Numbered from the stretch's first letter, positions 12,037 through 48,693 are shown. The stretch is 64,000 bases of DNA from Mobula hypostoma (GCF_963921235.1 NW_026948140.1:124001-188000); one strand, 5' to 3'. Numbers and translations are program-made. The notes: generated from the sequence alone by a model not told the origin.

Positions 12037-12149
12037 TATGTAATGTTAGCAATAATTTCAAGTGAATTAAAATATAAATGCAAGAGTGTAACATTAAGGC
12101 TTTATATTGCACTGATGCGGCCTCACTTGGAGAATTGCGCGTATTTTCA

Positions 12150-12537: not shown

Positions 12538-12539
12538 AT

Positions 12540-15439: not shown

Positions 15440-15800
15440 CAGAGAAACATAGATACATAGAAAACAAACAGCACAATACAAGCACTTTGGCCCACAAAGC
15501 TGTGCCAAACATGCCCCTACCTTAGAACCACCTAGGCTTTACCCATAGCCCTCTATTTTGCTAAGCTCCATCTAGTCATGCAGGAGTCTCTAAAAAGACC
15601 CTATCGTTTCTGCCTCCGCTGCTGCCACCAGCAGCCCATTCTACGCACTCACCACTCACTGTGTAAAAAACTTACCCTGACATCTCCTCTGTACCTACCT
15701 CCAAGCACCTTAAAACTATGCCCTCTTGTGCTAGCTAATTAACCCTGGGGAAAAGCCTCGACTATCCACATGATCAATGCCTCTCATTATCTTGCACACC
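15440..15800 (-). mobile_element. CR1 3' end fragment
   Basis: Reverse tail AGAAACATAG and 3' ORF2/UTR similar to 29435-29683. Confidence 0.75.
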
Positions 15801-27127: not shown

Positions 27128-27539
27128 TTTATAGACCTAATTTACACAACAAAAAAAAATGCTTAGCTTAATCCTTGCAGTTTCGATCCACAAAGCATAA
27201 CATCTGCAAGGTTATCAGTCAGAACAGAACAAACAAAGGTCTGTAGCAATTTTAACCCGTTATTCACAAGAGTCCAAAAATCATTTCCCGACCCCCTTAA
27301 CCCTTTAATATCTCAATCATGGACTTGAATTTAATGGTCTAATATCCTCAGTGACACCAATAAGTATTTTCAGTCATATCTAGTTTTCAATTCATGGGAA
27401 CAAACTGATATTGTAACACACTCTTTGAGTTACCTCACTGAATTCTGAAAATCCATACAAATGGTGACACAAAAGCAAAACGTAAATTCAAGAACCCAAC
27501 CAGTAACCTCCAAGACTCCATAAGTGTGTTTTCAATTAC

Positions 27540-27545
27540 TTTATT
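27540..27545 (-). terminator. Candidate polyadenylation signal (AATAAA) of the IFITM gene
   Basis: Plus-strand TTTATT about 210 nt downstream of the exon 2 stop codon, in apparently unique sequence. Confidence 0.5.
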
Positions 27546-27756
27546 AGTAACATCCAAGCCATATCTTGCCCCCAGTTTAAGGAAGAGATCTATATTGTTG
27601 CCAGTTGATTAAGTATATCAGGCCTCCATAGAGATTACAGACAAAGTAAGCAATAGTAAACAATGCATCAAGAAATTAAACAGCTCCATCACAAGGATGC
27701 TCCTTCCATGGCCAATAAACTGCTGAGACCATCACGTCTCCTCCTATGTATCTCCA

Positions 27757-27927
27757 TCAAAAATTCTTGGGGACATTCATCATGGCAACTGTTCCAGTAG
27801 CTACCAGTGCAACGATGATTATGAAGAAAAGAACACCAATCACAGTGGCTGCAATATTGAGGGACCGTGCTGTAGATCCATAGTGCTGAGCTCCTTCGAT
27901 GTCACCCACAACTTTGCGATCTCTAGA
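27757..27927 (-). CDS. IFITM: IFITM exon 2: SRDRKVVGDIEGAQHYGSTARSLNIAATVIGVLFFIIIVALVATGTVAMMNVPKNF* (56 aa)
   Basis: Acceptor ttttttctattAG|TCTAGAGATCGC (phase 0). SRDRK basic patch, GxxxG (GDIEG), A-x-x-L-N-I and a C-terminal hydrophobic TM helix. TGA at 27757-27759. Confidence 0.95.
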   Translation of the reverse strand, partial: SRDRKVVGDIEGAQHYGSTARSLNIAATVIGVLFFIIIVALVATGTVAMMNVPKNF

Positions 27928-28689
27928 CTAATAGAAAAAATATATAAATAAATATGCAAGCAGACCAAGACTACCACGTTAGTGATATCTAATTGGTGAG
28001 ACAAGTTGGTAGTCTTTAGTGCAACTACCTCTTTTTATTTAAAATAACAGATTTGGAATCAGGTTTATTATCACTGGCATTTGTCATGAAATTTGTTCAT
28101 AAAATGCCCACCAGCATAACTGTATTAATAAAATAGAGCACAGTCTTAAGCCAGGGTATTACAATAAAATACACTATAAATTATAATAATAAATATATTT
28201 TAAAAATTAAGCAGAGCAAAAGCAGCAAAACACAGTGAGCCTGTGTTGATGGGTTCATTGTCCATTCAGAAATCTGATGCCACTGAGGAAGGGGACGGAA
28301 GTACATTTTATTTATCGAGTCCCTCCGTTGGTTAGCACCTACAATGGCTAATGCATTCCAGCTGTCCACGTGATACATAAGCCAGGACAGCTCGATATGG
28401 AGAGCAGGCCATTGCCCATGTAGTGGGCTCCCCATCTCATGAATCCAAAGGAACGGCAGGGACCAATAGAGTTTGGCACCAGCGGCATTGCAATAGTTGT
28501 CAGTCAGCATTGAACTCAACTTAGTCCTGTCTTAGGGACTCTAGCTCTGGAATGTTCCTCTGGGTTTATTCCCAAAGCCTTTCTTAGAAGTGGGTACAGC
28601 ACAAAGCAGCAGAGGTTTAATATCAAAGCTTTCCATCTCCAAACTCAGCTGATGAACACCATCTGCCCAAGGTGACTGGTTTTAAGACA

Positions 28690-29433
28690 GTAAGATATAG
28701 GAACAGAATTAGGCTATTTGACCGATCAAGTCTGCTCCACTATTTCATCATGGCTGATCAAATATTCTTCTCAGTCCCAAACTCCTGCCTTCTCCTCATA
28801 TTCCTTCATGCCCTGACAAATCAAGAATTTATCAACCCTCCTTTAAATACACAGAACAACTTGGCCTCCACGCTGCCTGTGGCAACAAATTCCAGCCTCT
28901 AGCTACAGAAATTGCACCATTCTAAAACGATGCCCCTCTATTCTGAAGCGATGTCCTCTGGTGTTAATCAAGGCCTTTCACAATTTGATAGGTTTCAATT
29001 ATGTCACCCCACATTCTTCTGAATTCTGGTGAATACAGTCCCGGATCCATCAAACACTCCTCGTATGACAAGCCACTCATTCCTGAAATCATTTTCGGGA
29101 ACCTCCTTTGAATCATCTCTAGTTTCAGCATATCCTTTCTGAAATAAGGGCCCAAAACTGCTCATCATACTCTAAGTGAGGCCTCACCAGTGCTTTATAA
29201 AGTCTCAAAATTGCATCCTTGCTTTTATATTCTAGTTTTTTTGAAATGAATGCTAACATTGCATTTTCCTTCCTCACCACAGACTCAGCCTGTAAATTAA
29301 CCTTCTGGGAGTCTTGCACAACAACTCCCCACTTAGATAATACTATTGCCCCCTTTACCAAAATGCATCATACATTTCCCAGTAGTGTATTCCATCTACC
29401 ACTTTTTGCCAATTCTTCCAATTTGTCCAAGTC
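28690..29433 (-). mobile_element. Degraded CR1 RT/3' fragments
   Basis: ORFs 28964..29155 and 29125..29361 (LYKALVRPHLEY). Confidence 0.75.
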
Positions 29434-29683
29434 ATAGAAACTTAGAAAACATACAGCACAATACAGGCCCTTCGGCCCACAAAGCTATGCTGAATATATC
29501 CCTACCTTAGAACTACCCAGGCTTTACCCATAGCCCTCTATTTTTCTAAGCTCCATGTAGCTATCCAGGTGTCTCTTAGAAGACCCTATCATTTCTGCCT
29601 CCACCACCGCCCCCGGCAGCCCATTCCACGCACTCACCACTCTCTCTGTAAAAAACTTACCCCTGACATCTCCTCTGTACCTA

Positions 29684-31792
29684 CAAACCTCATTTCCAGA
29701 AAAGTTTGGATATTTTCCAAAATGCAATAAAAACAAAAATCTGTGATATGTTAATTCACGTGAACCTTTATTTAACTGACAAAAGTACAAAGAAAAGATT
29801 TTTAATAGTTTTACTGACCAACTTAATTGTATTTTGTAAACATACACAAATTTAGAATTTGATGGCTGCAACACACTCAACAAAAGTTGGGACAGAGGCA
29901 TGTTTACCATTGTGTTATATCACCTTTCCTTTTAATAACACTTTTTAATTGTTTTGGAACTGAGGATACTAATTGTAGTAGATTTGCAATTGGAAATTTT
30001 GTCCATTCTTGCTTGATATAAGACTTCAGCTGCTCAACAGTCCGTGGTCTCCGTTGTCTGATTCTCCACTTCATGATGCGCCATACATTTTCAGTAGGAG
30101 ATAGATCTGGACTGGCAGCAGGCCAGTCAAGCACACGCACTCTGTGTCTACAAAGCCACGCTGTTGTATCCCGTGCAGAATGTGGTCTGGCATTGTCCTG
30201 CTGAAATAAGCATGGACGTCCCGGGAAGAGACGTCGCCTTGATGGCAACATATGTCTCTCTAAAATCCTAATATACGCCTCAGAGTCAATGGTACCTTCA
30301 CATCCATGCAACTCACCCATGCCGTGGGCACTGATGCACCCCCACACCATCACAGATGCTGGCTTTTGCACCTTTCGCTGATAACCATCTGGATGGCCGT
30401 TTTCATCTTTGGCACGGAGAATTCGACACCCGTTTTTTCCAAAACTAGCTGAAATGTGGACTCATCTGACCACAGCGCACGGTTCCACAGTCTTTCAGTC
30501 CATCTGAGATGAGCACGGGCCCAGAGAACTCACTGGCATTTCTGCATATAGTTGATGTATAGCTTCCTCCTTGCGTAATACAATTTCAAGTTGCATTTCT
30601 GGATGCAGTGACGGACTGTGTTGAGTGACAATGGTTTACCGAAGTACTCCCGAGCCCAGGTGGCTAGAATTGTCACAGTAGCATGACAGTTTCTTAGGCA
30701 GTGCTGCCTGAGGGCTCGAAAATCACGCGCATTCAACAGTGGTCTATGATCTTGCCCTTTATGCACTGAGATATCTCTGAATTCTCTGAATCTTCTCACG
30801 ATATTATGTACTGTAGATGTTGAAAGAGCTAAATTCTCTGCAATCTTGCGTTGAGAAATGTTCCTTTTGAAATGACTAACAATTAGAGGGAGTACAAAGA
30901 AGGTTCACCAGATTGATTCCTGGGATGGCAGGTCTTTCATATGAAGAAAGACTGGATGAACTGGGCTTGTACTCGTTGGAATTTAGAAGATTGAGGGGGG
31001 ATCTGATTGAAACGTATAAGATCCTAAAGGGATTGGACAGGCTAGATGCGGGAAGATTGTTCCCGATGTTGGGGAGGTCTAGAACGAGGGGTCACAGTTT
31101 GAGGATAGAGGGGAAGCCTTTTAGGACCGAGGTTAGGAAAAACTTCTTCACACAGAGAGTGGTGAATCTGTGGAATTCTCTGCCACAGCAAACTGTTGAG
31201 GCCAGTTCATTAGCTATGTTTAAAAGGAAGTTAGATATGGCCCTTGTGGCTACAGGGGTCAGGGGGTATGGAGGGAAGGCTGGGTTCTGAGTTGGATGAT
31301 CAGCCATGATCATAATAAATGGCGGTGCAGGCTCGAAGGGCCGAATGGCCTACTCCTGCACCTATTTTCTATGTTTCTATGTTTCTAATTCTCTCATGAA
31401 TTTTGGCACAAAGGGGTGAGCCACAACCCATCCTTGCTTGCAAAGACTGAGCCTTTGATGGACGCTACTTTTATACCCAGTCATGATACCTCACTTGCTA
31501 CCAATTAACCTGCTTAATGTGGAGTCTTCCAAACCGGTGTTACTTGAATATTCTGTGCACTTTTCAATCTTATTTTAACTCTGTCCCAACTTTTGTTGAG
31601 TGTGTTGCAGCCATCAAATTCTAAATTTGTGTATGTTTACAAAATATAATTAAGTTGGTCAGTAAAACTATTGAAAATCTTTTCTTTGTACTTTTGTCAG
31701 TTAAATAAAGGTTCACGTGAATTAACATATCACAGATTTTTGTTTTTATTGCACTTTGGAAAATATCCCAACTTTTCTGGAAATGGGGTTTG
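29684..31792 (-). mobile_element. Full-length Tc1 (DD34E) transposon with ~210-bp TIRs; transposase disrupted
   Basis: TA TSDs (29682-83, 31793-94). TIRs CAAACCTCATTTCCAGAAAAG / CTTTTCTGGAAATGGGGTTTG. Transposase starts MGCGSPLC (31431) and includes QQDNARPH...[11 protein letters not shown], with 34 residues between D and E. Confidence 0.93.
30885..31387 (+). mobile_element. Young CR1 family A 3' fragment inserted in the Tc1 transposase
   Basis: ORF 30913..31290 is essentially identical to the end of 53417..55510; short ATT/AATT duplication. Confidence 0.95.
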
Positions 31793-32449
31793 TACTTCCA
31801 AGCACCTTAAAACTATGCCCTCCCATGCTAGCCAATTCAGCCCTGGGGAAAAGCCTCTGACTATCCACACGATCAATGCCTCTTATTATCTTGTACACCT
31901 CTATCAAGTCACCTCTCATCCTCCGTCGCTCCAAGGAGAAAAGGCCGAGTTCACTCAACCTATTCTCTTAAGGCATGCTCCCCAATCCAGGCAACATCCT
32001 TGTAAATCTCCTCTGCACCCTTTCCTGTAATACCATGGGCTCTTATCTTGGTAAGCAGCCTCATTTTTGCCACCTTGTCAAAGAACTTCTAAAAGTCAAA
32101 TACACAACATCAACTGCATCCTCGTTATCTATCCTACTTATAATCTCCTCAAAGAATTCCAACAGGTTCATCAGGCAGGATTTTCCCTTAAGGAAATCCT
32201 GCTGACTTTGTACTATCTTGTCCTGTGTTACCAAGTACTCCATCACCTCATCCGTAACAATTGACTCTCACATCTTACCAACCACTCAGGTCAGTTCAGC
32301 TAGTCTATAATTTCCTTTCTGCTGCCTTCCTCTTTTTTTAAAGAGTAGAGTAACGTTTATAATTTTCCAGTCCTCTGGCACCATGCCAGAGTCGAATGAT
32401 TTTTGAAAGATCATTTCTAATGCCACCACAATCTCTAACACTACCTCTA

Positions 32450-34237
32450 TTAGAATCAGGTTTATTATCATTGGCATGTATCATAAAATTTGTTAACTAT
32501 GAGCAGCAGTTCAATGCAATACATAATATAGAGGAAAGAAAAAATTAAAATAATAATAAATTACTGTATATGCATATTGAATAGATTAAAAATCATGCAA
32601 AAAAACAGAAATATATATTTTAAAAGTGCGGTACTGTCCAAGGATTCAACGTCCATTTAGGAATCGGATGGCAGAGGGGAAGAAGCTGTTCCTGAATCGC
32701 TGAGTGTGAGCCTTCAGGCTTCTGTACCTCCTACCTGATGGTAACCTGATGAGAAGATTCACTGGAATGATTCTGGAAATGAGAGGGTTAACATATGAGG
32801 AACGTTTGTCCGGTCTTGGACTGTATTCCTTGGAGTTTAGAAGAATGAGGGGGGGCCTCATAGAAACATTTTGAATGTTGAAAGGCATGGACAGAGTGGA
32901 TGTGGGAAAGTTGTTTCCCATGATGGGGGAGTCTAGTACGAGAGGGCATGACTTAAGGATTGAAGGGCGCCCATTCAGAACAGAGATGCAAAGAAATTTT
33001 TTTAGTCAGAGGGTGGAGAATCTATGGAATTTGTTGCCACAGGCAGCAGTGGAGGCCAACTCATTGGGTGTACTTAAGGCAGAGATTGATAGGTATCTAA
33101 GTAGCCAGGGCATCAAAGGTTATGGTGAGAAGGCGGGGGAGTGGGACTAAATGGGAGAATGGATCAGCTCGTGATAAAATGGCGGAGCAGACTCGATGGG
33201 CCGAAAGGCCAACTTCTGCTCCTTTGTCTTATGGTAACAGTGAGAAAAGGGCATGCCCTGGGTGCTGGAGGTCCGTAATAATGAACGCTGCCTTTCTGAG
33301 ACACCTCTCTTGAAGATGTCCTGGGTACTTTGTAGGCTAGAACCCAAGATGGAGCCAAGTAACTTTACGACCCTTGCAGCTTCTTTCAGTCTTGTGCAGT
33401 AGCACCCCTCCCCACCCACCAATACCAGACGGTGATGCAGCCTGTCAGAATGCTCTCCACGGTACATCTATAGAAGGTTTTGAATGTATTTGTTGACATA
33501 CTAAATCTCTTCAGACTCCTAATGAAGTATAGCCACTATCCTGCCTTCTTAATAACTGCATCGATATGTTGGGGCCAGGTTAGATCCTCAGAGATCTTGA
33601 CACTCAGGAACTTGAAACTGCTCACTCTTTTCAGTTCTGATCCCTTTATGAGGATTAGTATGTGTTCCTTCTTCTTACCCTTCCTGAAGTCCATAATCAG
33701 CTCTTTCGTCTTACTGACACTGAGTGCCAGCTTGTTGCTGTGACACCACTTCACTAGTTGGCATATCTCGCTCCTGTACGCCATCTTGTCACCATCTGAG
33801 AATCTATCAACAATGGTTGGATCATCAACAATTTATAGATGGTATTTGAGCTACGTGTAGCCACACAATCACGTGTATATAGAGAGTAGAGCAGTGAGCT
33901 AAGCACACACCCTGAGGTGCACTAGTGTTGATCATCGAGGAGATGTTATCACCAATCCGCATAGATGGTGGTCTTCCGGTTAGGAAGTCAAGGATCCAAT
34001 TGCAGAGGAAGGTACAGAGGCCCAGGTTCTGCAACTTCTCAATCAGGGTTGTGGGAATGGTATTAAATGCTGAGCTATAGTCGCTGAACAGCATCCTGTT
34101 GTTTGTGTTGTCTGGGTTGTCTAATGCTGTGTGAGGAGCCATCGAAATTGTTTCTGCCATTGATCTATTGTTGCAATAGGTAAATTGCAATGGCTCCAGG
34201 TCCTTGCTGAGGCAGGTGTTCAGTCTAGTCATGATCA
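32450..34237 (-). mobile_element. Rex1/Babar-like LINE RT fragment containing a CR1 3' insertion (~32747-33230, +)
   Basis: PLQFTY...RMLFSDYSSAFNTI...WILDFLTGR, KTKELIMDFRK and LPSGRRYRSLK; the insertion is flanked by ATGGTAAC repeats. Confidence 0.8.
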
Positions 34238-35192
34238 AGGATAGAATCACCTTGTTGTGGGTGATTCTATCCTCAATCACTACCTCAAAAAATTCTATCC
34301 TGGCAGAATGGCTCCAATAGCTTCCCTATTACTGCTGTACAACTGACAGCCTATAGTTTTTTGAATTATCCCCTTTTGTCTTCTGGAACAAAGGAACAAC
34401 GTTTGTAATTCCTCAGTCCTCTGTCTCATTACCTGTTGTTAGTGAGAATAGAATCATCTTTGTCAAGGCCCTAGCAATCTCCTGTCTTGCCTCTCTCAAG
34501 CCCTGAGATCCACCTTAATGCTTTTCAAAAGATCCAGCATCACTTCCTCTTGAGTGGAAACTGCCCTGGTAATTTAACATGCCGCACGTTTATCTGTTTC
34601 TTCCATGTTACAGGGTAGTTGTTGTAGGTGATCTCAACTTGTGCAATATAGTCTGGGACTCTGTATTACAAGAAATTTAGATGGGGCAGAATACATCCAA
34701 GAGGGTTTCCTAAGTCAACATGTAGATTCTGCATCTAAAAGGGGAGCGATACGGGACCTGGTTTTGGGAAATGAGCATGGCCAGGTGACTCTCCTTTCAG
34801 TGAAGAACAGTTAGAGAACAGTGATCACAACTCCACAAATTTTAAAGTAGCTATGAATAGGGTAAAACTACAAGACACAGGAGAAGAATTAGGCCATTCC
34901 CATCAAATCTGCTCCACCATTTCATCATGGTTGATTTATTATCCCTCTCAATCCCATTCTCCTGCCTTCTCACTGTAACCTTTGATGCCTTTAGTAATCC
35001 AGACCCTACCAACCTCTGCTTTAAATATGCCCAACGACTTAGCCCTCACAGCCATCTATGGCAATGAACTCCACAGACTCACCACCCTCCAGCTAAAGAA
35101 ATTCCTTCTCGTCTCTGTTCTAAATGGACATCCTCTATCCTGAGCCTGTGCCCTCTGGTCCCAGACCCACCCTCTATAAGAAACATCTTCAC

Positions 35193-35745
35193 ATGCAACA
35201 AATACAGAATGCTGGAGGAACTCAGCAGGCCAGGCAACAGGAAAAGAGAAAACAGTCATCAGGACTGGAGAAGAAAGATGAGGTCAGAGTATGAAAGTGG
35301 GGGGAGTGAAGAAAGAAATACAGGGTAGTAGATGATATGTGAGACTGGGGGAAGGGGATGGGAAGTCAATTTGTGGAAGAGATACAGGGCTGAAGAAGGG
35401 TATATCTGATGGGAGCAGACAGAATGCCATGGGAGAAAGGATAGAGGGAGGAGCACCAAAGAGAGGTGATGGGCAGGTAAGGAGATAAGGTGAGAGGGAG
35501 AAATGGGAATGGTGAAGGAGAGGGGGTGGGGCATTACCGGAAGTTTGAGAAATCGATGTTCATGCTATCAGATTGGAGGCTACCCAGACGGAATATAAGG
35601 TGTTGCTCCTCCAACTTGACTGTGCCCTCATCGCAGCAGTAGAGGAGGCCATGGACTGTGATGACGGAGTGGGAATGAGAAATAGAAAAATAAAATGGGA
35701 GATCCCACTTTTTCTGGTGGATGGAGGATAGGTGCTCAGCGAAGA
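35193..35745 (-). mobile_element. Penelope-like 3' fragment inside CR1 debris
   Basis: HGLLYCCDE...LEEQHLIFRLGSLQSDSMNIDF. Confidence 0.75.
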
Positions 35746-36049
35746 CATCCACTCTACCTAGGCCTTTCATTATTCAATAGGTTTTAGTGAGATTCACCAC
35801 CCCCCCCCCTCCATTTCTGAACTCCAATGAGTATGGGGCCAGAGCCATCAAATGTTCCTCAATAGTTAACTCTTTCATTCCTGAGATCATTCTTGTGAAA
35901 TTCCTCTGGACCTTCTATAGTTCCTGCACATCGTTGAGACCATAAGTCATAGGAGCAGAATTAGGCCATTCACCCATCGAGTCTGGTCCACCATTCCCTC
36001 ATAGCTGATCCCAGATCCCACTCCACTTTTCTTGATAAAGTGCCCAAAA

Positions 36050-39000
36050 CTTCTCACAATAATTATGGACCTTATAGGAGAGTATTAAATTGGGAGAGGG
36101 CAAATCATGAAAGTATTAGGCAAGAACTAGGGAGAACTAATTGGAGCTGTTTCTGGGCAAGTCCACACCTAAATGTTGAGGGTGTTTCAAAAGCAACTGT
36201 ACAAAGTACATAATAAGCATAGACATGGACACAGAAAAGACATAGAAAATCTACAGCACAATACAGGCCCTTCAGCCCACAATGCTGTGCTGAACATGTA
36301 CTTACTTTAGAAATTACCTAGGGTTACCTATAGCCCTCTATTTTTCTGGTTAAAGAATTTTTAATAAAGGTAATTTTAATAAAGGCATGTTCTAATAAAA
36401 AGCAAGGACAAGGATGGAAAGATGAGGGAATCTTGGATGTCAAGGGGGTGGTGAATTTAGTCAAAGAGGAAAACATACGTAAGGTTTAGGAAGCTAAACT
36501 CAGACTGAGTCTTTAATGATTATAATGATGCAAGAACTTGAGAAGGGGATTAGCTTGGCCAAGAGAGGCCATGAGTGGTCCTTGGCAAGTAGGATTAAAA
36601 AGAATCTCAAGGCATTCTAAGCATATACCAAGAGCAAGAGATTAAGTAGGGAACAGTTAGGATCACTTAAGGATAAAGGAGGTAATATGTTCTTGCTGGT
36701 GGAGATGTTAAGTGAAGTCCTAAATGAGTACTGTTCATTGGTGTTTACTGAGGGGAAGGATGTTGAAGATAGGCAGATTGGTGTGAAATACCAATGCATT
36801 TTGAGATGGAAATAGCATAGGATACACTGGCTGATTGGTAGGAGGCAGTGAGTGGGAATAAAAGGATCACAGTGAAGACTGAAGCAAAATAGTTATTCAG
36901 TTCGTCCATTTACTTGTCCCCCATTACTACCACTCCAGAGCCATTTTCCAACAGTATTATATCTACTCTCACCTCCCTTTTTCTCTTTATACACATCTGA
37001 AAATACCTTCAGTATCGTTCTTGATATGGTTGGTGAGGTTATCTTCACATTTTATCTATTCCCTCCCTATAGCTTGTTAGGTTGCCTTCTGTGGGTTTTT
37101 TAAAAACTACCCAATCCTCTAATTTCCCACTATTTTCTGTTCTTTTCTATGACCACTCTTTTGCTTTTATGTTGGCTTTGACTTCCCTTGTTAGCCACAG
37201 TTGTGACATCCTTCCTTTAGAATACTACTACTTCTTTGGGATGCATCTATCTAACGTTGCATTTGACTTCCACTCCACTGACTAAACCTGCAAGTTAACC
37301 TTTGGGGAATCTTGCACAAGGACTCCCAAGTCCTTTTCCAACTCAGATTTTTGAATTATCTCTCCATCTTGAAAATAGTCTACCTTTTCATTCCTTCTAC
37401 TGAAGTTCATGAGCATACACTACCTGACACTGTATTCCATCTGCCATGTCTGTGTTAGGAAAGTGTTTAATTGGAGTAAGGGGAAATATGAAGCTATGAG
37501 GCAAGAACTGGGAAGGACAAATTGGGAACAAATGTTCACGGGAAATGTACGGCAGAAATGTGGCAAATGTTCAGGGGATATTTGCTTGGCGTTCTGCATA
37601 GGTACGTTCCAATGAGACAGGGAATGAATACTTTGCTTCAGTATTCACTACGGAAAAGGGTCATGGCGATTATAGGGATGACTTACACGGACTGAAAAGT
37701 TTGAGCATATAGACATTAAGAAAGAGGATGTGCTGGAGCTTTTAGAAAGCATCAAGTTGGGTAAGTCTCTGGAACTGGATAAGATGTACCAAGGGCTACT
37801 GTGGGAGGTGAGATAGGAAATTGCTGAGCCTCTGGCAATGATCTTTGCATCATCAATGGGGATGGGAGCGGTTCCGGAGGACTGGACGGTTACAGATGTT
37901 GTTCCCTTATTCAAGAAAGGGAATAAAGATAGCCCAGGAAATTATAGACCAGTGAGTCTTCAGTGATTGGTAAGTTGATGGAGAAGATCCTGATAGGCAG
38001 GACTTATGAACATTTGGAGAGGCATAATATGATTAGGAATCATGGGTGACTTTAACTTCCCTAATATTGATTGGCACCTGATTAGTTCCAAGGGTTTAGA
38101 TGGGGCAGAATTTGTTAAATGTGTCCAGGATGGAGTCCTGTCACAGTATGTGGACAGGACGACCAGGGGGAATCCATACTAGATCTAGTACTAGGTAATG
38201 AACCGGGTCAGGTCACAGATCTCTCAGTGGGTGAGCATCTGGGGGACAGTGACCACCGCTCCCTGGCCTTAATAATTATCATGGAAAAGGATAGAAACAA
38301 AGAGGACAGGAAAATTTTTAATTGGGGAAAGGCAAATTATGAGGCTATAAGGCTAGAACTTGCGGGTGTGAATTGGGATGATGTTTTTGCAGGGAAATGT
38401 ACTATGGACATGTAGTCGATGTTTAGAGATCTCTTGCGGGATGTAAGGGATAAATTTGTCCCGGTCAGGAAGATAAAGAATGGTAGGGTGAAGGAACCAT
38501 GGGTGACAAGTGAGGTGGAAAAGCTAGTCAGGTGGAAGAAGGCAGCATACATGAGGTTTAGGAAGCAAGGATCAGATGGGTCTATTGAGGAATATAGGGA
38601 AGCAAGAAAGGAGCTTAAGAAGGGGCTGAGAAGAGCAAGAAGGGGGCATGAGAAGGCCTTGGCGAGTAGGGTAAAGGAAAAACCCAAGGCATTCTTCAAT
38701 TATGTGAAGAAAAAAAGGATGACAGGAGTGAAGGTAGGGACAGATTAGAGATAAAGGTGGGAAGATGTGCCTGGAGGCTGTGGAAGTGAGCGAGGTCCTC
38801 AATGAATACTGCTCTTCAGTATTCACCAATGAGAGGGAACTTGATGATGGTGAGGACAATATCAGTGAGGTTGATGTTCTGGAGCATGTTGATATTAAGG
38901 TAGAGGAGGTGTTGGAGTTGTTAAAATACATTAGGACAGATAAGTCCCTGGGGCCTGACGGAATATTCCCCAGGCTGCTCCACGAGGCGAGAGAAGAGAT

Positions 39001-41745
39001 TGCTGAGCCTCTGGCTAGGATCTTTATGTCCTCGTTGTCCACGAGAATGGTACCGGAGGATTGGAGGGAGGCGAATGTTGTTCCCTTGTTCAAAAAAGGT
39101 ATTGTAGGGATAGTCCGGGTAATTATAGACCAGTGAGCCTTACGTCTGTGGTGGGAAAAATGTTGGAAAAGATTCTTAGAAAGAGGATCTATAGGCATTT
39201 AGAGAATCATGGTCTGATCAGCGACAGTCAGCATGGCTTTGTGAAGGGCAGATCGTGTCTAACAAGCCTGATAGAGTTCTTTGAGGAGGTGACCAGGCGT
39301 ATAGATGAGGATAGTGCAGTGGATGTGATCTATATGGATTTTAATAAGGCACTTGATAAGGTTCCACACGGTAGTCTTATTCAGAAAGTCAGAAGGCATG
39401 GGATCCAGGGAAGTTTGGCCAGGTGGATTCAGAATTGGCTTGCCTGCAGAAGGCAGAGGGTGGTGGTGGAGGGAGTACATTCAGATTGGAGGATTGTGAC
39501 TAGTGGTGTCCCACAAGGATCTGTTCTGGGACCTCTACTTTTCGTGATTTTTATTAACGACCTGGATGTGGGGGTAGAAGGGTGGGTTGGCAGGTTTGCA
39601 GATGACACAAAGGTTGGTGGTGTTGTAGATAGTGTAGAGGATTGTCAAAGATTGCAGAGAGACATTGATAGGATGCATAAGTGGGCTGAGAAGTGGCAGA
39701 TGGAGTTCAACCCGGAGAAGTGTGAGGTGGTACACTTTGGAAGGACAAACTCCAAGGCAGAGTACAAAGTAAATGGCAGGATACTTGGTAGTGTGGAGGA
39801 GCAGAGGGATCTCGGGGTACATGTCCACAGATCCCTGAAAGTTGCCTCACAGGTGGATAGGGTAGTTAAGAAAGCTTATGGGGTGTTAGCTTTCATAAGT
39901 TGAGGGATAGAGCTTAAGAGTCGCGATGTAATGATGCAGCTCTATAAAACTCTGGTTAGGACACACTTGGAGTACTGTGTCCAGTTCTGGTCACCTCACT
40001 ATAGGAAGGATGTGGAAGCATTGGAAAGGCTACAGAGGAGATTTACCAGGATGCTGCCTGGTTTAGAAAGTATGCATTATGATCAGAGATTAAGGGAGCT
40101 GGGGCTTTACTCTTTGGAGAGAAGGAGGATGAGAGGAGACATGATAGAGGTGTACAAGGTAATAAGAGGAATAGATGGAGTGGATAGCCAGCGCCTCTGC
40201 CCCAGGGCACCACTGCTCAATACAAGAGGAAATGGCTTTAAGGTAAGGGGTGGGAAGTTCAAGGGGGATATTAGAGGAAGGTTTTTTACTCAAAGAGTGG
40301 TTAGTGCGTGGAATGCACTGCCTGAGTCAGTGGTGGAGGCAGCTACACTAGTGAAGTTTAAGAGACTACTAGACAGGTATATGGAGGGATCTAAGGTGGG
40401 GGCCTATATGGGAGGCAGGGTTTGAGGGTTGGCACAACATTGTGGGCCGAAGGGCCTGTACTGTGCTGTACTATTCTATGTTCTATGAATAGTCAGCATG
40501 GCTTTGTAAAAGGCAGATTGTGCCTTACGAGCCTGATTGAATTTTTTGAGGATGCGACTAAACATATTGATGAAAGTAGAGCAGTATCAGCAAGGCATTT
40601 GATAAGGTACCCCATGCAAGGCTTTTTGAGAAAGTAAGGAGGCATAGGATCCAAGGGGACCTTGCTTTGTGGATCCAGAACTGATTTACGCACAGAAGGC
40701 AAAGAGTGGTTGTTGACGGGTCATATTCTGGATGGAGGATGGTGACCAGTGGTGTGCCTCAGGGATCAGTTCTGGAACCCCTTCTCGTGGTGATTTTAAT
40801 AGAAAAGTCCTGGATGAGGAAGTGAAGGGATGGGTTAGTAAATTTGCTGATGGCACAAATGATGGGGGTGTTGTGGATAGTGTAGAAGCTGTCAGAGGTT
40901 ACAGCGGGACATTGATAGGATGCAAAACTGGGCTGAGAAGTGTCAGATGGAGTTCAACCCAGATAGGTGTGAGGTGGTTCATTTTGGTAGGCCAAATATG
41001 ATGGCAGAATATAGTATTAATGATAAGACTCTTGGCAGTGTGGAGGATCAGAGGGACCTAGGGGTCTGAGCCCATAGGACACTCAAAACTGCAGCACAGG
41101 TTGACTCTGTGCTTAAGAAGGCATACAGTGCATTGGCCTTCATCAACCACGGGATTGAGTTTAAGAGCTAAGTGGTAATGTTACAGCTGTATAGGACCCT
41201 GGTCAGACCCCACCTGGAGTACTGTGCTCAGTTCTGGTCACCTCGCTATAGGAAGGATGTGGAAACTATAGAAAAGGTGCAGAGGAGATTTACAAGAATG
41301 TTGCCTGAATTGGGGAGCATGCCTCATGAGAATAGGTTGAGTGAACTTGGCCTTTTCCCCTCTGTGCGGCGGAGGTGAGAGGTGACCTGATAGGTGTATA
41401 AGAGAGGCATTGATCGCGTGGATAGTTAGAGGCTTTTTCCCAGGGCTGAATTGGCTAACAAGAGAGGGCACAGTTTTAAGGTGCTTGGAGGTAGGTACAG
41501 AGGAGATGTCAGGGGTAAGTTTTTTTACGCAGAGAGTGGTGAGTGTATGGAATGGGCTGTCGGAAACGGTGGTGGAGGCAGATATGATAGGGTCTTTTAA
41601 GAAACGCTTGGATATGTACACGGAGTTTAGAAAAATAGAGGGTTATGGGTAACCCTAGGTAATTTCTAAAGTAAGGGCATGTTTGGCACAGCATTGTGGG
41701 CTGAATGGCCTTTATTGTGCTGTAGTTTTTCTATCTATGTTTCTA
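36050..41745 (+). mobile_element. Mosaic of older CR1 ORF2 fragments (host of the 38041-40486 insertion)
   Basis: Broken ORF2 motifs at 37450-38040 resume at 40487 (SQHGF) and run through LVRPHLEY to a tail at ~41745. Confidence 0.75.
38041..40486 (+). mobile_element. CR1 family B, 5'-truncated, nested
   Basis: ORFs 38119-40425 match the 21050-24856 element; TSD GAAT (38037-40 / 40487-90). Confidence 0.93.
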
Positions 41746-42620
41746 AAATTGCAAATGTCACTCCATTTTCAAGAAGAGAGAGAGCCAGAAGAAAGGGAAC
41801 TTTTGCCAGTCAGTCTGACCTCAGTGGTTGAGAAAATATTAGTCAATGATTAAAGATAAGGTCTCAGGGTACTTCAAGGTTCATGATAAAATACACCATG
41901 GTCAGCATATTTAGCAGACAAGGAGAGTCCTAACAGATTCTACAGATACGTTCAGAGCAAAAGGATTGCAAAGGACTGTAGAGGGGAGGGGCAGATCAGA
42001 ATTCTGGAAGATCAGAATTGTAATTCACATGTGGAGCCAAAATAGATGGGAGAAATCACATAAGTACATTTTTTTGCATCAGTATTTATTCAGGAGATGG
42101 ACACAGAGTCTATAGAAGTGAGGTAAACCAGCATCAACTTACCAGATATTTCCTGCATCCAGGCCTGATGAGCCAAAGCCTCCTACCCTAACACTGGTCC
42201 ACTCACACAACGGCCACTCCATTTATCCCTACCATTGTTGGCAAATGCAGTGACCAACATTGCGCATGCCTCCTTTACTACAGGTTCAACCTGTAAATTA
42301 TCCTTCTGGGAATCTTGCCCGAGGACTCCCAAGACCCTCTGCACCTTTTATGTTTGAACCTTCTCGCTATTTAGGTAATAGTCCACACTATTGTTCCTTT
42401 TACCAAAATGCATTATCATTCATTTCCTAACACTGTATTTCACCTGCCACTTTTTTGCCAATTCTTCCAATTTGTGTAAGTCCTGTTGGAATCACATTGC
42501 TTCCTCAGAACTACCTACCCGTCCATCTATCTTTGTATGATCCACAAACTTTGCCACAAGGCCATCAATTCCATTATCTAAATCACTGACAATGTAAAAA
42601 GTAGCAGTCCCAATGCTGAC

Positions 42621-44445
42621 AACATGCTGGAGGAACACAGCAGGTCGGGCAGCATCCGTGGAAAAGATTGGTCGACGTTTTGGGCTGGAACCCTTTGTCA
42701 GGACTGTAGAGGGAAGGGGCAGAGGCCCTATAAAGAAGGTGGGGGGAGGTTGGGAAGGAGAAGGCTGGTAGGTTCCAGGTGAAGAACAAGTAAGTGGAAA
42801 GATAAAGGGGTGGGGGAGGGGAAGCAGGAAGGTGATAGGCAGGAAAGGTGAAGGAAGAATAGGGAAAAACACAATGGGTAGTAGAAGGAGGCGGAACCAT
42901 GAGGGAGGTGATAGGCAGCTGGGGGAGGGGGCAGAGTGACATAGTGATAGGGGAAGGGGGGGAGGGAATTACCAGAAGTCGGAGAATTCTATGTTCACAC
43001 CAAGGGGCTGGAGACTACCTAGACAGTATATGAGGTGTTGCTCCTCCAACCTGAATTTAGCCTCATCATGGCAGTAGAGGAGGCCACGTACGGACATATA
43101 AGAATGGGAGTGGGAAGCAGAGTTGAAGTGGATGACTACTGGGAGATCCTGTCCATTGTGGCGGATGGAGTGGAGGTGCTCGACAAAGCGGTCCCCCAAT
43201 CTGCGCCGGGTTTCACCAATGTAGAAGAGGCCACACCGGGAGCACCGGATGCAGTAGATGACCCTAACAGACTCACAAGTGAAGTGTTACCTCACTTGGA
43301 AGGACTGTTTGGGGCCCTGAATGGTGGCAAGAGAGGAGGTGTAGGGACAGGTGTAGCACTTGCGCTTACAGGGTTAAGTGCCAAGTGGGAGATCCGTGGG
43401 GAGGGACGTGTGGACCAGGGAGTCGCGGAGGGACCGATCCCTGCGGAAAGTGGAGAGGGGTGGAGAGGGAAGATATGCTTAGTGGTGGGGTCCTGTTGAA
43501 GGTGGCGGAGGATAATGTGCTGGATCCGGAGGCTGGTGGGGTGGTAGGTGAGGACAAGGGGAACTCTGTCCCTGTTATGGTGGCAGGAGGATGGGGTGAG
43601 AGCCGAAGTGCGGGAAATGGAGGAGATGCGAGTGAGGGCATCATTGATGACAGCAGAAGGGAACCACGATCCTTAAAGAAAGAGGACATTTGAGATATCC
43701 TGGAACAGAAAACCTCATCCTCGGAGCAGATGCGGCGGAGATGGAGGAACTGGGAATAGGGAGTGGCATTTTTGCATGTAGTGGGGTGGGAAGAGGTATC
43801 GTTGAGGTAGTTATAACAGTCAGTGGGCTTGTAGAAGATGTCAGTGGACAGTCTGTACTAGAGATGGAGACCGAGAGATTGAGAAAGGGGAGAGAAGTGT
43901 CCGAGATAGACCAAGTGAATTTGAGGGCTGGTTGGAAGTTAGAAGTAAAGTCAATGAAATTGACGAGCTCAGCATGGGTGCACGAAGCAGCACCAATGTA
44001 GTTGTCAATGTACCGAAGGAAAAGTTGGGGAGCAGTACCAGAATAGGTTTGGAGCATAGACTGTTCCACATAACCAACGAAGAGGCAGGCATAGCTATGG
44101 CCCATGCGAGTTCCCATAGCTACACCCTTAGACTGAAGAAAGTGGGAAGAGCCAAAGGAGAATTTATTGAGTGTGAGAACCAGTTCCGCCAACCAGAGGA
44201 GGGTAGTGGTGGTGGGGAACTAGTGAGGTCTATTATCCAGAAATTAGCGGAGGGCTTTGAGGCCTTCTTGATGGGGAATGGAGCTGTATAGGGATTGGAC
44301 ATCCATAGTGAAAATGAAGCGGTTGGGACCGGGAAACTGGAAGTTATTGAAGAGGTGGAGGGCATGGGATGTATCTCGGATGTAGGTGGGGAGGGACTGA
44401 ACTATGGGTGACAAAATGGAGTCCAGGTAGGCAGATACAAGTTCA
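42621..44445 (-). mobile_element. Penelope-like element, RT plus GIY-YIG, 5'-truncated
   Basis: TMDVQSLY, FLQSKGVAMGT...YACLFVG, FLRYIDNY and the GIY-YIG C-terminus; 13-bp TSD TCCCAAT(G/A)CTGAC. Confidence 0.9.
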
Positions 44446-46437
44446 TCCCAATACTGACCGCTGAGGAACACCACTAGAGACAGCCTATCAGAAAAGGGCC
44501 CCTTTTTTAACATCACTCACTGCCTCCTGCCTGTTAGCCATTCCGCTATCCATGCCAATAACTTTCTTGTAACACCATCGAAATTTTTCCTGTTAAGGTG
44601 CCAGACGAGGCTGCTTATCAAACGCCCTCTGAAAATCCAAGTAAATGACATCTACTGCCTCTCCTTTGTCCACCTTGCATGTTACTTCCTCAAAGAACTC
44701 TAGCAGATTGTCAGGCAAGATTTCCCTTGACATAAACTATTCTGTATCTACCTCTACCGCAAATCCATGCACCAACCACTTAGCATAAAAATTTACCTCA
44801 GATTATCAACCCGCCCCGCCACATACTTTCATTCAAACTTGTTAGACTTATCTAGTTTGAGTCTGGAAATAAACACACTTTCAATCTCTTTTCATACAGT
44901 GTTCACCAATCACTGTGTAAAGAGTTTCCTCATCTCACCTTGCCCCCTCCCCCAATATATCATTCAGTTTTGCCAAGTTCTTGATACCCTCTGTCAAAAG
45001 GAACATTCTAAACAATGGATTCATCGGCTGTGTGGTGTACTGGGCAGTGTTGGATGTGGAGCAAGTATGGCCCATACCCTGTTCCACCACCATGGTAGTT
45101 ACCCAAGCTATCATACATTCCACCCAAGGATTCAAGATGGAGCTCATCCAGTAGGTTGAGATTTACAGAGTTTAAGGGGAAGTATACTCCACTTGCCCTT
45201 GTCCCATTATCACCTGTATTAAATGATCATCTCTATTGAGTGGGACTACAACCAGAGGTCATGGATTAAGAGTGAAAGGTGAAAAGTTTAAGGGAAACTT
45301 TAGGAGAAACTTCTTCACTCAGGGTCGCATGAGTGTGGAACGAGCTGCCAGCACAAGTGGTGCACGAGAGCTCAAGTTCAACATTTAAAATAAGTTTGGA
45401 TAGGTACGTGGATGGTAGGAGTATGGAAGACAATGATCCTGGCGCAGGATAGGAGTAGCAATTTAAATGGTTCAGCAGACCAGATGGGCTGAAGGGCCTG
45501 TTTCAGTGCTGTACTTTTCTATGACTCTGACTCTAAACTATGCGTGTGATTGACACTGGCAAGCACCAAGTGTTTCCAGGTACTGAGGTTCCACTTGTCC
45601 CCAGTGCAGCACAGGATGAACCTGGCCCATGACCATATAGTGTTCTGTTTAATTGGACACTGCTGGACAAACTGTCCTTTGCAGGAAGTATTCTTTTGAG
45701 CACACACCCATCAGGCGGCAGTCAATATGAAACTGCCTGACACCTTGTCATGATTTGGAGGCCTGTGTTCCTCAATGACTTGGAGAGCTATGCTGGGTGG
45801 AGTCACGGCTTCATGCTTTGAACCTTGGTGGGATCACCCCTGTCAAACAGGTCTAAGAGTAGTGGCCAGACCGAGAGTGATCCACCAGACCTCCAGGTTT
45901 GGGGACTCAGTTCAGGGTTAACAACCTGAACTAGTCAAATAACTGTTACAGAAATAGCGATGAAAAGCCCTTATATATCTGAGTGGCCAAGGACAGACAG
46001 TGATGGAGAATCTTCATTACTGCCCTAAATGCCAGCAGTGTAACAGACAGCAAATTTTGTGGAGCAGGACACCAGGGATCCTATGGAGTTTCCCCAAACA
46101 GATTATGGAGACCAGCTGGCAGAATGTCATCACTTGACTATACCGGATAGGTGGTTCTCCATCAGTTCCCCCTGTAGGCTTGCTGGCGGGTGAGATACCA
46201 GTTTTTCTGCACATTCACCACGCACACGACCACCCGTCCCTCACAGAGCGACAACATCCCACAGAGGATGATAATCCTCTCACAGAACGCCACCCCGAAC
46301 CCCAACAGACACAGGAACACTCATTCTGCCCCTCAGCCGCTTTCAGCTTCCATGGCTGTAAAAGGCGCGGCCCAGCAGTCACCCGCGCCGGAGGTTCGAG
46401 GGGCTTTTCCAGCTGCTCACCCCACTTCCGCACTCAC

Positions 46438-46539
46438 TTTGACCGAGAAGATGACGGCGATGAACCCGAGGCAGCAGAGGTTCATGTAGGAGAGGTTGAA
46501 GAGGGACCAGGGCAGATAATCGTGGGGCATAGCTAAAAC
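46438..46539 (-). CDS. IFITM: IFITM second exon-1-type cassette (exon 1b): (VLA)MPHDYLPWSLFNLSYMNLCCLGFIAVIFSVK
   Basis: Visible at the end of ORF 46417..46746(-). ATG at 46530; in-frame candidate acceptor CAG|GTTTTAGCTATG at 46539; ends AAA|GTGAGT (phase 0). No stops. Has the same conserved motif as exon 1a. Confidence 0.85.
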
Positions 46540-46799
46540 CTGCGCGTTTGGGCAGCGGCGGGATTCGTGCAGGGGGCGGGGCGTGTGGTGGCGGGAGCGG
46601 GAGAGGGCCCTGGCCGGGGACTGGGGATGGGAGGGCCTGGGCGTGATGAGGGGTGGGTGTTGGTTAGTAGCGTTTGGGCTGGGACCAGGCTGTGGCTGGT
46701 GGGTGGGAGGGGGTTGGGGATGAGAGGAGATGGGGAGGGGACACATTGGGTTCTGGGATGGGGAAGTGCAGTGGTTGAGGGAGAAGTGAGTCGAGTGAG

Positions 46800-47195
46800 T
46801 GGTTGAAGGAGAGAGAAAGGGGCGGAGGGAGGGGGGATACAGAGAGAGGGGGTCGGAGAGGGAGAGGGGTGGAGAGGGAGGGAGGAGGAGAGGGGCGTAG
46901 AAGGGGAGGGGGAGAGGGTCACAGAAGGGGGGAGGGGGAGAGGGGTCGCGGAGGGAGGGGGAGAGGGTCGCAGAAGGGGAGGGGGAGAGGGTCGCGGAGG
47001 GAGGGGGAGGGGGTCGCGGAGGGAGGGGGAGGGGGTCGCGGAGGGAGGGAGGAGGAGAGGGTCGCGGAGGGAGGGAGGGGGAGAGGGTCGCAGAGGGAGG
47101 GGGAGGGGAGAGAGTCGCAGATGGAGGGAGGGGAAGAGGGTCGCAGATGGATGGAGGGGGAGAGGGTTGCAGAGGGAGGGAGGGGGACAGGGTTG
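46800..47195. repeat. G/A-rich degenerate minisatellite (unit approx. GGAGGGAGGGGGAGAGGGTCGC[G/A])
   Basis: About ten recurrences of GGGTCGC(G/A)GA separated by GGAG/GGGG runs; very strong strand purine bias. Confidence 0.85.
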
Positions 47196-47444
47196 GATAA
47201 GTAGCCGGTGCATATCACAAATTCTGGTTATGCAACTACTGACGCCAGGCAGACAATCTCTGAAGAATATTGATATGGCTGGGGTCACCCGTCTTGGAAA
47301 GATACTACCTAGAAGAAGGCAATGGCAATCCATTTCTGTGAAAAATTTGTTAAGAACAATCATGGACATGGAAAAGACCTAGACTGCCTCCGGCATGGCA
47401 TATAAGAAACGAACGAATCTCTGGCCGTGTCATCCTACCCGCGG

Positions 47445-47740
47445 CTACGGAGCCCGGGGGTTTATACCCTTGCCTAGGGTATGCAGACCGGGAGAGAGCG
47501 AGTTATACATTTCCTAGGGTACGAAACCCCGGGGTTTATCCTTCCCTTGTGTACGGAGCTGGGCATTTATTCACTACTCAAGATACGGAGGTTATTTACC
47601 TCTTTACTGTAAGGAGCCCAGGGGTCATATATCCCCCAGGAGTTTATTTCCCTTTAGAACAGAGCCGGATGTTTATCCTCCCCTAGTACGAATCTGGAGT
47701 AATCCCGAGATATGAGCCCGGGGTTTAATTCCCGCGTATC
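47445..47740. repeat. Degenerate ~30-bp tandem repeat (core ACGGAGCCCGGGGTTTAT)
   Basis: Variants recur: acggagcccgggggtttat, acgaaaccccggggtttat, acggagctgggcatttat, aaggagcccaggggtcat, acagagccggatgtttat, atgagcccggggtttaat. Confidence 0.55.
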
Positions 47741-47995
47741 CCTATACCGGGTAAAGATCCCAGGAATTTCGGCATCCGGTGGATTTGGCAGCATTGCGAT
47801 CTTTTCATCGGCACTCCATTACCAGCGGTGAAGATAAACTCATTTTGCGAAGAGTCACCTCTTCCCACCCAACATTCTCCCTGCATCTCTGCGTCTCTTC
47901 TATCTCAGCCCGACTGCTGCCTCGCTTCTCCCCGGCTCGTGTCACCCATCCCCGTTTCTAGAGTTCTTTCCCTCCTATCACCGATCCCTACTCAC

Positions 47996-48154
47996 CTTAA
48001 TCGAATACACCATGGCAGTTAAGCCCAAGCAGCAGAAATTCATGTAGAACAGGTTGAAGATGGACCAGGGCAGGTGATCGCGGACGGGGAGCACGCCAGG
48101 CACCACCTGAACCGTACGAGGAGTCATTGGGGTCTGGTCAGTTCTGTACTCCAT
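47996..48154 (-). CDS. IFITM: IFITM/CD225 (dispanin) gene, exon 1a: [53 protein letters not shown] (53 aa)
   Basis: Hand translation of the minus strand. ATG is in a good Kozak context (agaATGG). D-H-x-x-W-S-x-F-N...N-x-C-C-L-G...Y-S-x-K matches the IFITM exon 1 pattern. Ends AAG|GTGAGT, the canonical phase-0 IFITM intron position. Paralogue number cannot be assigned. Confidence 0.93.
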
Positions 48155-48535
48155 TCTGGACTGGTGCGGGACAGCGGAGAGTTCAGGCGTTAGTTACTGG
48201 TCAGAGTTTGATGTGAAGGCGGGGTTTCTCAAAACCAAATATGGGGCAGCGGAGGTACGTGTGCTGGCTCTCGAAATTTAGGAGGGAGTGGCAAAACGTT
48301 AAAAGGGTGGTATGTGACGATTGAGCAAGGGTGAAATAATTTCTCCCCATTCCTTGAGAACTCAAGTGAAATTAAGTGATGGTAACGTACTGGTATTGGA
48401 GGGGTGGCGGGTGCGTCTGGAAAACACTAACATTTAAAAGCAAACGGAGAATATTTCACCACACTTTTTTAATAAACGTTTTTGTAATAATATACAGTAT
48501 ATAAAGCGAAAAGAAAAACAGCGCGAAACTCCAAG
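48155..48535 (-). promoter_or_regulatory. Putative 5'UTR/proximal promoter of IFITM exon 1a
   Basis: Apparently unique DNA between the ATG and the first repeat. GC-box-like GGCGGG near 48218; IRF-element-like AAGTGAAA (48364) and AAAGCGAAAAGAAAA (~48503). Motif calls were made by eye. Confidence 0.4.
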
Positions 48536-48693
48536 TTCTTGGCCATGTCAATGCATTCAGTCAGGTTAACTCTCCGTTTAAAATAGCACCATTAGCATTT
48601 ATTCTTCCTCTCCCCCCGAGAAAGAGCCTTGGCTGTTGTGTGTGAATTAATGGCACGGGTGCCATTTGATACAAGAAGAAAATGTCAACAAAT

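Follow-up and report, generated by a model that had tools for sequence, protein, structure and literature searches.

Organization of the IFITM-like locus

The DNA analysed here is a stretch of 64,000 nucleotides (nt) from the genome of Mobula hypostoma (C46:124001-188000; hereafter the window), which carries on its minus strand three exons of an IFITM-like locus with the CD225 domain: two first exons, designated 1a and 1b, and one second exon, exon 2 (Table 1). The original prediction, made from the sequence of the window, had proposed that 1a and 1b are alternative first exons of a single IFITM gene, which share exon 2 in a variable/constant arrangement and are both under selection. Direct reading of the sequence confirmed the positions of all three exons and the phase-0 donors of both first exons, each following a Lys codon (AAG/GTGAGT in 1a and AAA/GTGAGT in 1b; the slash marks the splice point), and the products expected from joining either first exon to exon 2, 109 amino acids (53 plus 56) and 87 amino acids (31 plus 56), had been correctly calculated. 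Three features had escaped the prediction: the long open frame upstream of 1b, the second occurrence of the unit on the contig and the CpG-rich stretch common to both first exons. As far as its sequence goes, the locus has the layout of a gene with alternative first exons, i.e., two first exons with an ATG each, donors in the same phase and one exon 2.

Exon 1a encodes the N-terminal domain and the first CD225 half with the CC motif, and exon 2 encodes the intracellular loop SRDRK... and the transmembrane helix. In exon 1b, only the CD225 half of an exon 1 is represented, in an intact copy that lacks annotation and lies inside intron 1, 1,465 nt downstream of the 1a donor. All three exons score above the curated cut-off of Pfam CD225 (PF04505), 27.1 bits, in agreement with the predicted gene family: 34.0 bits for exon 1a (profile positions 2-30), 35.7 bits for exon 1b (positions 1-30) and 44.4 bits for exon 2 (positions 31-68). 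Since the first exons and exon 2 fill opposite parts of the profile, they represent complementary halves of one domain and not chance matches. The double Cys is present before the first hydrophobic segment in both first exons (NFCCLG in 1a; NLCCLG in 1b), and SRDRK in exon 2 agrees with the basic loop motif (S/A)RD(R/K)K, residues that mark IFITM1/2/3-like proteins. The 1a-to-2 gene consists of two coding exons split between the two hydrophobic segments, as in dispanin subfamily A (IFITM), and its intron stands, as predicted, at the canonical IFITM point (...SIK/SRDRK, phase 0), which is the conserved site of the family in the intracellular loop. In a paper on the dispanin family, the splice site is described as conserved in the intracellular loop and subfamily A as having a two-exon structure (PMC3282796). 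An AATAAA sequence is found about 215 nt past the exon 2 stop; the 3' untranslated part in Table 1 is given as a minimum that rests on contigs, the true RNA end being beyond their reach.

Table 1. Features of the IFITM-like locus and its surroundings, with the contigs that cover exon 2 (positions in the window; 1a', 1b' and exon 2' are the exons of the second unit on C46)
Feature	Position	Strand	Remarks
Exon 1a, coding part	47996..48154	-	53 amino acids, ATG to ...ATTAAG/GTGAGT; protein end ...MVYSIK; sequence read directly
Exon 1b	46438..46530	-	31 amino acids from ATG, MPHDYLPWSLFNLSYMNLCCLGFIAVIFSVK; ends ...GTCAAA/GTGAGT; sequence read directly
Exon 2, coding part	27757..27927	-	56 amino acids + TGA; acceptor ...tctattag/, start TCTAGAGAT (SRDRK...); sequence read directly
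3' untranslated part of exon 2, minimum extent	27246..27756	-	contigs X1#2, X2#17, X19#9
Intron 1 of the 1a-to-2 gene	27928..47995	-	20,068 nt, transposon debris
Duplicated unit	24857..48693	.	colinear with C46:45586-70294, which carries 1a', 1b', exon 2'
CpG-rich stretch spanning both first exons	46201..48600	.	CpG observed/expected, 200-nt bins
26-bp G/A-rich minisatellite, 13.6 copies	46855..47193	.	Tandem Repeats Finder; between 1a and 1b
Tc1/mariner transposase remnant (DDE_3 + HTH)	29904-30904	-	Pfam; in intron 1
Reverse transcriptase of long interspersed nuclear element (LINE)	33825-34325 and 39019-39903		Pfam; in intron 1
GIY-YIG fragment	42969-43286		Pfam; in intron 1
Contig X1#2	27257-27929		731 nt, depth 739; 58 further letters
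Contig X3#26	27736-27929		246 nt, depth 1268; 52 further letters
Contig X19#9	27533-27929		598 nt; 201 further letters
Contig X2#17	27246-27808		ends short of the exon 2 acceptor junction

That the window contains a single exon 2, as had been claimed, was upheld by all the searches performed. Using the three exon peptides as tblastn queries against the window (E<=50, word size 2), we detected only the three exons and the cross-match between 1a and 1b. The six-frame search with the PF04505 hidden Markov model (HMM), which had been suggested together with the prediction for excluding a missed exon 2, was run for the whole genome (E<=10) and matched, inside the window, only the three exon sites. 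Two custom half-domain HMMs, applied to 2,960 stop-to-stop frames of at least 12 amino acids in the window, indicated no further CD225 half: the first-half model recognized 1a (E 2.9e-25) and 1b (E 5.1e-20), the next match being at E 0.089, and the second-half model recognized exon 2 (E 5.1e-30), the next match being at E 2.2.

Exons 1a and 2 as an annotated gene

Exons 1a and 2 together agree residue for residue (1-53 and 54-109, respectively) with an annotated protein of 109 amino acids, P0001 (XP_062895190.1), to which NCBI gives the name 'dispanin subfamily A member 2b-like' (RefSeq); dispanin A2b is the systematic name of IFITM3. Six proteins of the same build, 106-109 amino acids in length and with 74-91% identity to exon 1a, are from batoids, including the paralogue P0003 on C46; the relatives from other batoids belong to Hypanus, Torpedo, Rhinoraja, Amblyraja and Narcine, and the Swiss-Prot entry DSA2B_TORMA (Torpedo marmorata) is among them. 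The presence of same-build proteins in five other batoids indicates that the pairing of 1a with exon 2 is old as well as annotated. These batoid 'dispanin subfamily A member 2b(-like)' proteins are IFITM3-like, have similar lengths and are split at ...S(V/I)K/SRDRK; the 1a-to-2 gene is that gene. None of them contains exon 1b. None of the three RefSeq proteins seen for C46 (XP_062895190.1, XP_062895188.1 and XP_062895189.1) is labelled as an isoform, whereas the orthologues from Amblyraja and Narcine bear the label 'isoform X1'.

Transcripts and proteins

Logan contigs from four public runs with matches to exon 2 (X1, X2, X3 and X19) were aligned to window positions 27031-47030, a reference that contains exon 2 and 1b and excludes 1a, intron 1 being 20,068 nt long. 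In three of the four runs (X1, X3 and X19), a listed contig that covers exon 2 and 3' untranslated sequence stops fitting at 27929, i.e., at the acceptor plus two bases. Comparison of the sequence ends (..TTAG for the intron, ..TTAAG for 1a and ..TCAAA for 1b) shows that a join to 1a predicts two extra fitting bases, and therefore the break at 27929 fits a preceding exon that ends in AG (1a) and not one that ends in AA (1b). For X1#2, X3#26 and X19#9, no second piece within the reference, 1b included, was present among the pieces listed; according to a remark of the alignment software, the reads seem cut at 27930-27962. The joint 46438-to-27927 was absent among the 15 joints listed of a total of 1,171. 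The 1a-to-2 join thus agrees with both the annotated protein and the contig break, and a 1b-to-2 join is not among the joints and pieces listed. The mean word depth in the bin 46374-47030 over 1b was 3.7 (X1), 2.5 (X2), 0.4 (X3) and 0 (X19), to be compared with 739-1811 for exon 2 contigs and 2.5-4 for unique intron contigs of X2; contig depth over 1b was set aside as evidence either way, missing contig cover being no evidence.

Word-index protein searches with 1b (73-2000 and 30-98 amino acids) gave no candidate, but they were unreliable, having missed P0011 and P0016. By eye, these two proteins, both recovered by the exhaustive search described below, share at least six five-residue words with 1b and are within the searched lengths, the threshold of the word index being three. 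An exhaustive phmmer search of 1b against 1.84 billion cluster representatives gave 117 matches with E<=0.001, of which the best showed 76% identity and the top ones were IFITM-like proteins of frog, Xenopus and shark; no near-identical protein was detected among these representatives, although an 87-amino acid isoform could hide in the 50% cluster of the 109-amino acid protein. No 1b isoform was seen in the protein collections searched. Some public IFITM-like gene models look wrong (P0012, P0014 and P0018), reading through the ...SVK donor into the intron, and P0009, with 361 amino acids and three CD225 first halves, probably represents tandem genes fused in a gene model.

In the data examined, we found no evidence for the use of exon 1b. 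The proposed alternative use of the two first exons is not supported, since the annotation joins 1a to exon 2, the contig breaks fit 1a and no joint from 1b is listed.

Duplicated unit and CD225 genes on C46

The arrangement 1a-1b-2 is present in two units located about 103 kb apart on the same contig, C46 (Table 1), and these two units contain the only two occurrences of 1b in the 3.48-Gb assembly. Where the units can be aligned, their identity is mostly 93-98% per 500-nt bin, three bins being lower (0.846-0.898); stretches rich in transposons, about 3.5 kb and 0.5 kb in length, show poor or no alignment. Between the units, 1a carries two changes in 159 nt, one of which is synonymous, and exon 2 carries one change in 171 nt. 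The second unit is annotated by NCBI as a 109-amino acid protein of its own, P0126 (XP_062895188.1), with the differences Y>F and A>V. A 2-kb block around 1b (44857-46856) is 99% identical between the units and is mostly non-coding; for this reason we rejected the block as a sign of selection on the exon, and the identity of 1b, which sits inside it, says little on such selection.

Along the minus strand of C46, the PF04505 matches are arranged in the following order: two pairs of exon 1 and exon 2 (527210 with 473247, and 272508 with 240078); 1a, 1b and exon 2 of the window; and finally 1a' (69578), 1b' (68195), exon 2' (48524) and an exon-2-like piece at 34311. The second of these pairs is the gene of the third C46 paralogue, P0003 (XP_062895189.1), with exon 1 at C46:272538-272696 and exon 2 at C46:240045-240188. 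A 1b-like exon is absent between these two exons, and the confinement of 1b to the two units, together with its absence from the P0003 gene, was counted in favour of an orphan state of 1b.

The exon-2-like piece is an orphan CD225 sequence on the minus strand (C46:34263-34421), located downstream of exon 2' and beyond the limits of the duplicated unit. Its acceptor is good (ttttag/), but it has a loop PGDQK instead of SRDRK, a hydrophobic stretch shorter by about 10 residues, and a frame that passes the usual stop; the ratio of nonsynonymous to synonymous divergence (dN/dS) against exon 2 is 0.41, with dS 0.55 (30 codons). This piece suggests that gene loss has taken place in the cluster and shows that fragments of dead paralogues persist there. 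It could also be the old partner of 1b, though the divergence figures match poorly.

Elsewhere in the genome, about 20 further CD225 exon pairs are found on C96 (11.18-11.47 Mb), C12, C45, C71 and others, including a cluster of at least 4 or 5 CD225 genes on C96; off C46, exon-1 and exon-2 matches mostly alternate 1:1, as compared with 2:1 on C46. At one end of the window, positions 91-15607, which lie between the two IFITM-like units, form a 15.5-kb inverted copy, 99.8% identical, of C46:83265-98782. This copy is much younger than the 93-98% unit duplication; it may have arisen by a recent inverted duplication or may reflect a fault in the assembly of this small contig.

Divergence and constraint of exon 1b

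Between 1a and 1b, dN/dS is 0.19 with dS of about 1.1 (28 comparable codons). Over 28 residues, 1b is identical at 22 to shark, frog and Xenopus proteins, at 21 to Torpedo, at 20 to catshark and at 18 to the neighbouring 1a. No clear orthologue lineage for 1b emerged from this comparison, and a search with the shark protein P0016 did not find a complete second gene in this genome. Exon 1b carries no disabling change, and nothing in its 28 comparable codons points to relaxed constraint. These features indicate that 1b was constrained within a functional gene during most of its past, which does not imply a current function.

The original prediction had concluded from the kept frame, motif and donor that both copies are under selection. 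This argument turned out to be weak. The dN/dS of 0.19 averages the whole history since the split of 1a and 1b, and is thus a weak argument for present selection. Of all single substitutions in the 95-nt 1b unit, 8.8% would disable it; with an assumed indel rate of 0.15 per substitution, 1b would survive intact in the absence of selection with a probability of about 0.33 after 5% neutral divergence and of about 0.11 after 10%. The identity block around 1b is, as described above, mostly non-coding. The dN/dS between 1a and 1b thus shows past constraint, but an exon as short as 1b can remain intact for some time without selection.

Intron 1 and the CpG-rich stretch

Intron 1 contains remnants of several mobile elements (Table 1). 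Among the other window frames of at least 110 amino acids outside 26000-50000, 21 of 72 match Pfam, all with retroelement domains, and no host gene other than the IFITM-like gene was seen among these 72 frames. Retrotransposon frames with a GDSL lipase/esterase domain lie on the minus strand at 56424-57446 and 24034-24567; they adjoin endonuclease and reverse transcriptase frames and belong to an esterase-bearing type of LINE with several copies in the window.

The minisatellite between 1a and 1b keeps frames open on both strands, giving rise to pseudo-open reading frames rich in Pro, Gly or Arg of up to 281 amino acids. Through this repeat, the frame of 1b is open for 265 proline-rich amino acids upstream; the length of this upstream frame varies with the minisatellite copy number between the units (265 vs 215 amino acids). 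We considered whether the 265-amino acid frame could represent a long, PRRT2-like N-terminal domain and rejected this reading, the minisatellite opening both strands and Pfam recognizing the CD225 part only.

In the CpG-rich stretch, the observed/expected ratio of CpG is 0.8-1.2 in 9 of the 12 bins of 200 nt, as compared with 0.08-0.3 in the flanks, and the stretch is probably the promoter island of the gene. The exact core of the interferon-stimulated response element (ISRE), GAAANNGAAA, was not found in 45001-50000. The near-matches are two overlapping one-mismatch sites at 48517-48502, which corresponds to the background rate (2.06 per kb in the window).

Origin and possible use of exon 1b

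With moderate confidence, we favour the reading that the locus is an ordinary IFITM3-like gene, annotated and composed of two exons, whose intron contains a young orphan copy of an exon 1, the whole unit having been duplicated once. Exon 1b is most likely an unused remnant of an older paralogue. Transcription of the gene would start in the CpG-rich stretch upstream of 48154, and the transposon-filled intron of 20,068 nt would be removed by splicing, to yield a predicted product composed of an N-terminal domain, an amphipathic plus hydrophobic intramembrane segment with CC, the SRDRK loop and one transmembrane anchor. The older paralogue would have been under constraint for the greater part of its past and would have lost its use in recent times; transcripts that start at the 1a promoter would contain 1b merely as intron sequence. 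A later segmental duplication gave rise to the second 1a-1b-2 unit, at a distance of about 103 kb on C46.

A number of observations speak against exon 1b being such a leftover. It is fully equipped as a first exon, with an ATG preceded by G at -3, an open frame, the CC/W/F consensus of the CD225 half and a GTGAGT donor in the same phase as that of 1a, and it lies inside the same CpG-rich stretch as 1a. The amino acid replacements that separate it from 1a are conservative, and dN/dS has a low value; moreover, 1b is nearer to exon 1 of shark, frog and Torpedo IFITM than to 1a, which indicates that it has not drifted. Between the two units, 1b shows no change in 93 nt. The transcript data, in turn, carry limits of their own: the RNA nature of the runs is a guess by software, X3 being marked 'probably DNA'; the joints listed, as given above, are a small part of the total, and the pieces listed are a few of more than 100,000; contigs omit rare isoforms, and the runs may come from any tissue and interferon state. 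Likewise, the word-index negatives were not accepted as proof of absence after P0011 and P0016 had been missed.

The intact ATG, open frame, phase-0 GTGAGT donor and CD225 consensus residues of 1b, the dN/dS of 0.19, the identity of 1b in both units and its place in the CpG-rich stretch favour the view that 1b is a genuine alternative first exon, with its own start site in the CpG-rich stretch and spliced to the shared exon 2, which would yield an IFITM of 87 amino acids without the N-terminal domain and with a different amphipathic segment, perhaps tissue-limited or induced. For this view also count the fact that no CD225 half with an acceptor other than exon 2 is in reach and the precedent of Rhinolophus sinicus and three other bat species (PMC11801718). 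On the other side, the 1b-to-exon 2 joint is not among the joints listed; at the acceptor, the three contigs that extend so far show the break expected for 1a, and their further letters lie outside the reference containing 1b; both copies of the gene are seen only as single unlabelled 109-amino acid proteins; the third paralogue is without 1b; and the conservation around 1b is not exon-specific, running for 1.5 kb into non-coding sequence. On balance, we consider a genuine alternative first exon possible but doubtful, and a shade more doubtful still that 1b works as a condition-specific first exon, such that one gene, present in two copies, makes both a full-length IFITM3-like protein and the 87-amino acid form with the same loop and anchor.

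It is improbable that 1b comes from a separate older gene with the orphan piece at C46:34263-34421 as its exon 2, the two genes being interleaved in the other copy and the window copy being a truncated duplicate. On the minus strand of the other copy, the series 1a', 1b' and exon 2' is indeed followed by an exon-2-like frame whose acceptor is good, the duplicated unit stops at C46:45586 and leaves the orphan piece out, and both 1b and the orphan piece are related to the 1a and exon-2 types through an old divergence. The orphan piece, however, has lost SRDRK, with PGDQK in its place, and has the shorter hydrophobic stretch and the frame beyond the usual stop; its dN/dS and dS (0.41 and 0.55), set against those of 1b (0.19 and 1.1), are unfit for a shared history, each value being based on about 30 codons; and 1b' would have to be spliced past exon 2', in spite of the good acceptor there. 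The lack of any protein containing 1b among those found by the word-index and cluster-representative searches points the same way as weak evidence.

An assembly artefact, in which neighbouring genes were collapsed or mis-joined and one exon 2 was lost from the assembly, is very unlikely. C46 is a small piece (729,289 b of the 3.48-Gb assembly) and carries large near-identical repeats such as the inverted pair that includes window positions 91-15607 (99.8%), but the order 1a-1b-exon 2 is present in two separately assembled units that differ by 1-7%, in which one chance mis-join would not recur, the 1,465 nt from the 1a donor to the 1b ATG are colinear in both units, and the window is without any N. 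It is hardly credible that 1b is an internal cassette exon, which would take the 1a donor in frame through the AG at 46541-46540 (..gcgcag/GTTTTAGCTATG) to give a 1a-VLA-1b-exon 2 product of 143 amino acids with a doubled first half, for although the frame is kept over the 1a-1b join and is open upstream of the 1b ATG, the 10 bases before the AG are purine-rich (aaacgcgcag) and make a poor acceptor, no such joint or loose end is among those listed, no such protein is seen from this species, and P0009 (toad), alone among the database proteins in repeating the CD225 first half, resembles a fused gene model.

Comparison with known systems

Even if exon 1b were used as originally predicted, an IFITM gene with alternative first exons is not a new architecture, for it has been published for bats (PMC11801718). 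That report (PLoS Pathog 2024) describes the Rhinolophus sinicus IFITM gene LOC109436297, in which alternative first exons give rise to rsIFITMa and rsIFITMb; alternative IFITM first exons were present in 4 of 22 bat species, with both transcripts detected by RNA-seq, reverse transcription quantitative PCR and western blot. Both rsIFITMa and rsIFITMb are expressed and induced, and they are functionally distinct, differing in the N-terminal domain and the endocytic motif (PMC11801718). The bat gene is similar to the ray locus in having two first exons with their own start codons before one shared exon 2 of an IFITM3-like protein. Unlike the bat exons, the ray 1b is without any N-terminal domain, differs in the amphipathic/intramembrane part, is unannotated and was not seen in a transcript among the joints and pieces listed.

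A literature search for IFITM together with elasmobranch found no paper. If 1b is used, the locus would be, as far as the literature was searched, the first case of alternative IFITM first exons outside mammals, and the first in which the membrane-active segment and not only the sorting N-terminus is swapped; alternative first exons as a source of IFITM diversity have been shown only in some bats (PMC11801718). The interest of the ray locus would then be modest: with the amphipathic helix exchanged in a cartilaginous fish, nature would have provided an experiment for locating the part of the protein that determines antiviral specificity. As it stands, the significance of the locus is small, as it is an annotated member of a well-known family with an extra exon that is most simply taken as a leftover of gene turnover. 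It is a reminder that short exons with intact frame, motif and donor can look selected without being used.

The UGT1A and clustered protocadherin genes have many variable first exons, with proven promoters and transcripts, joined to constant downstream exons. The ray locus resembles these systems in having several first exons with donors in the same phase and a shared downstream coding sequence, but differs from them in having two first exons, with evidence of use for one. In immune gene clusters with a fast turnover, tandem duplication and partial deletion leave relic exons behind. Exon 1b resembles such relics in its isolated position beside intact paralogues, in its location within a duplicated region rich in transposons, and in the presence of a second, more decayed orphan on C46; it differs from them in carrying no disabling change, and as a relic it would have to be young.

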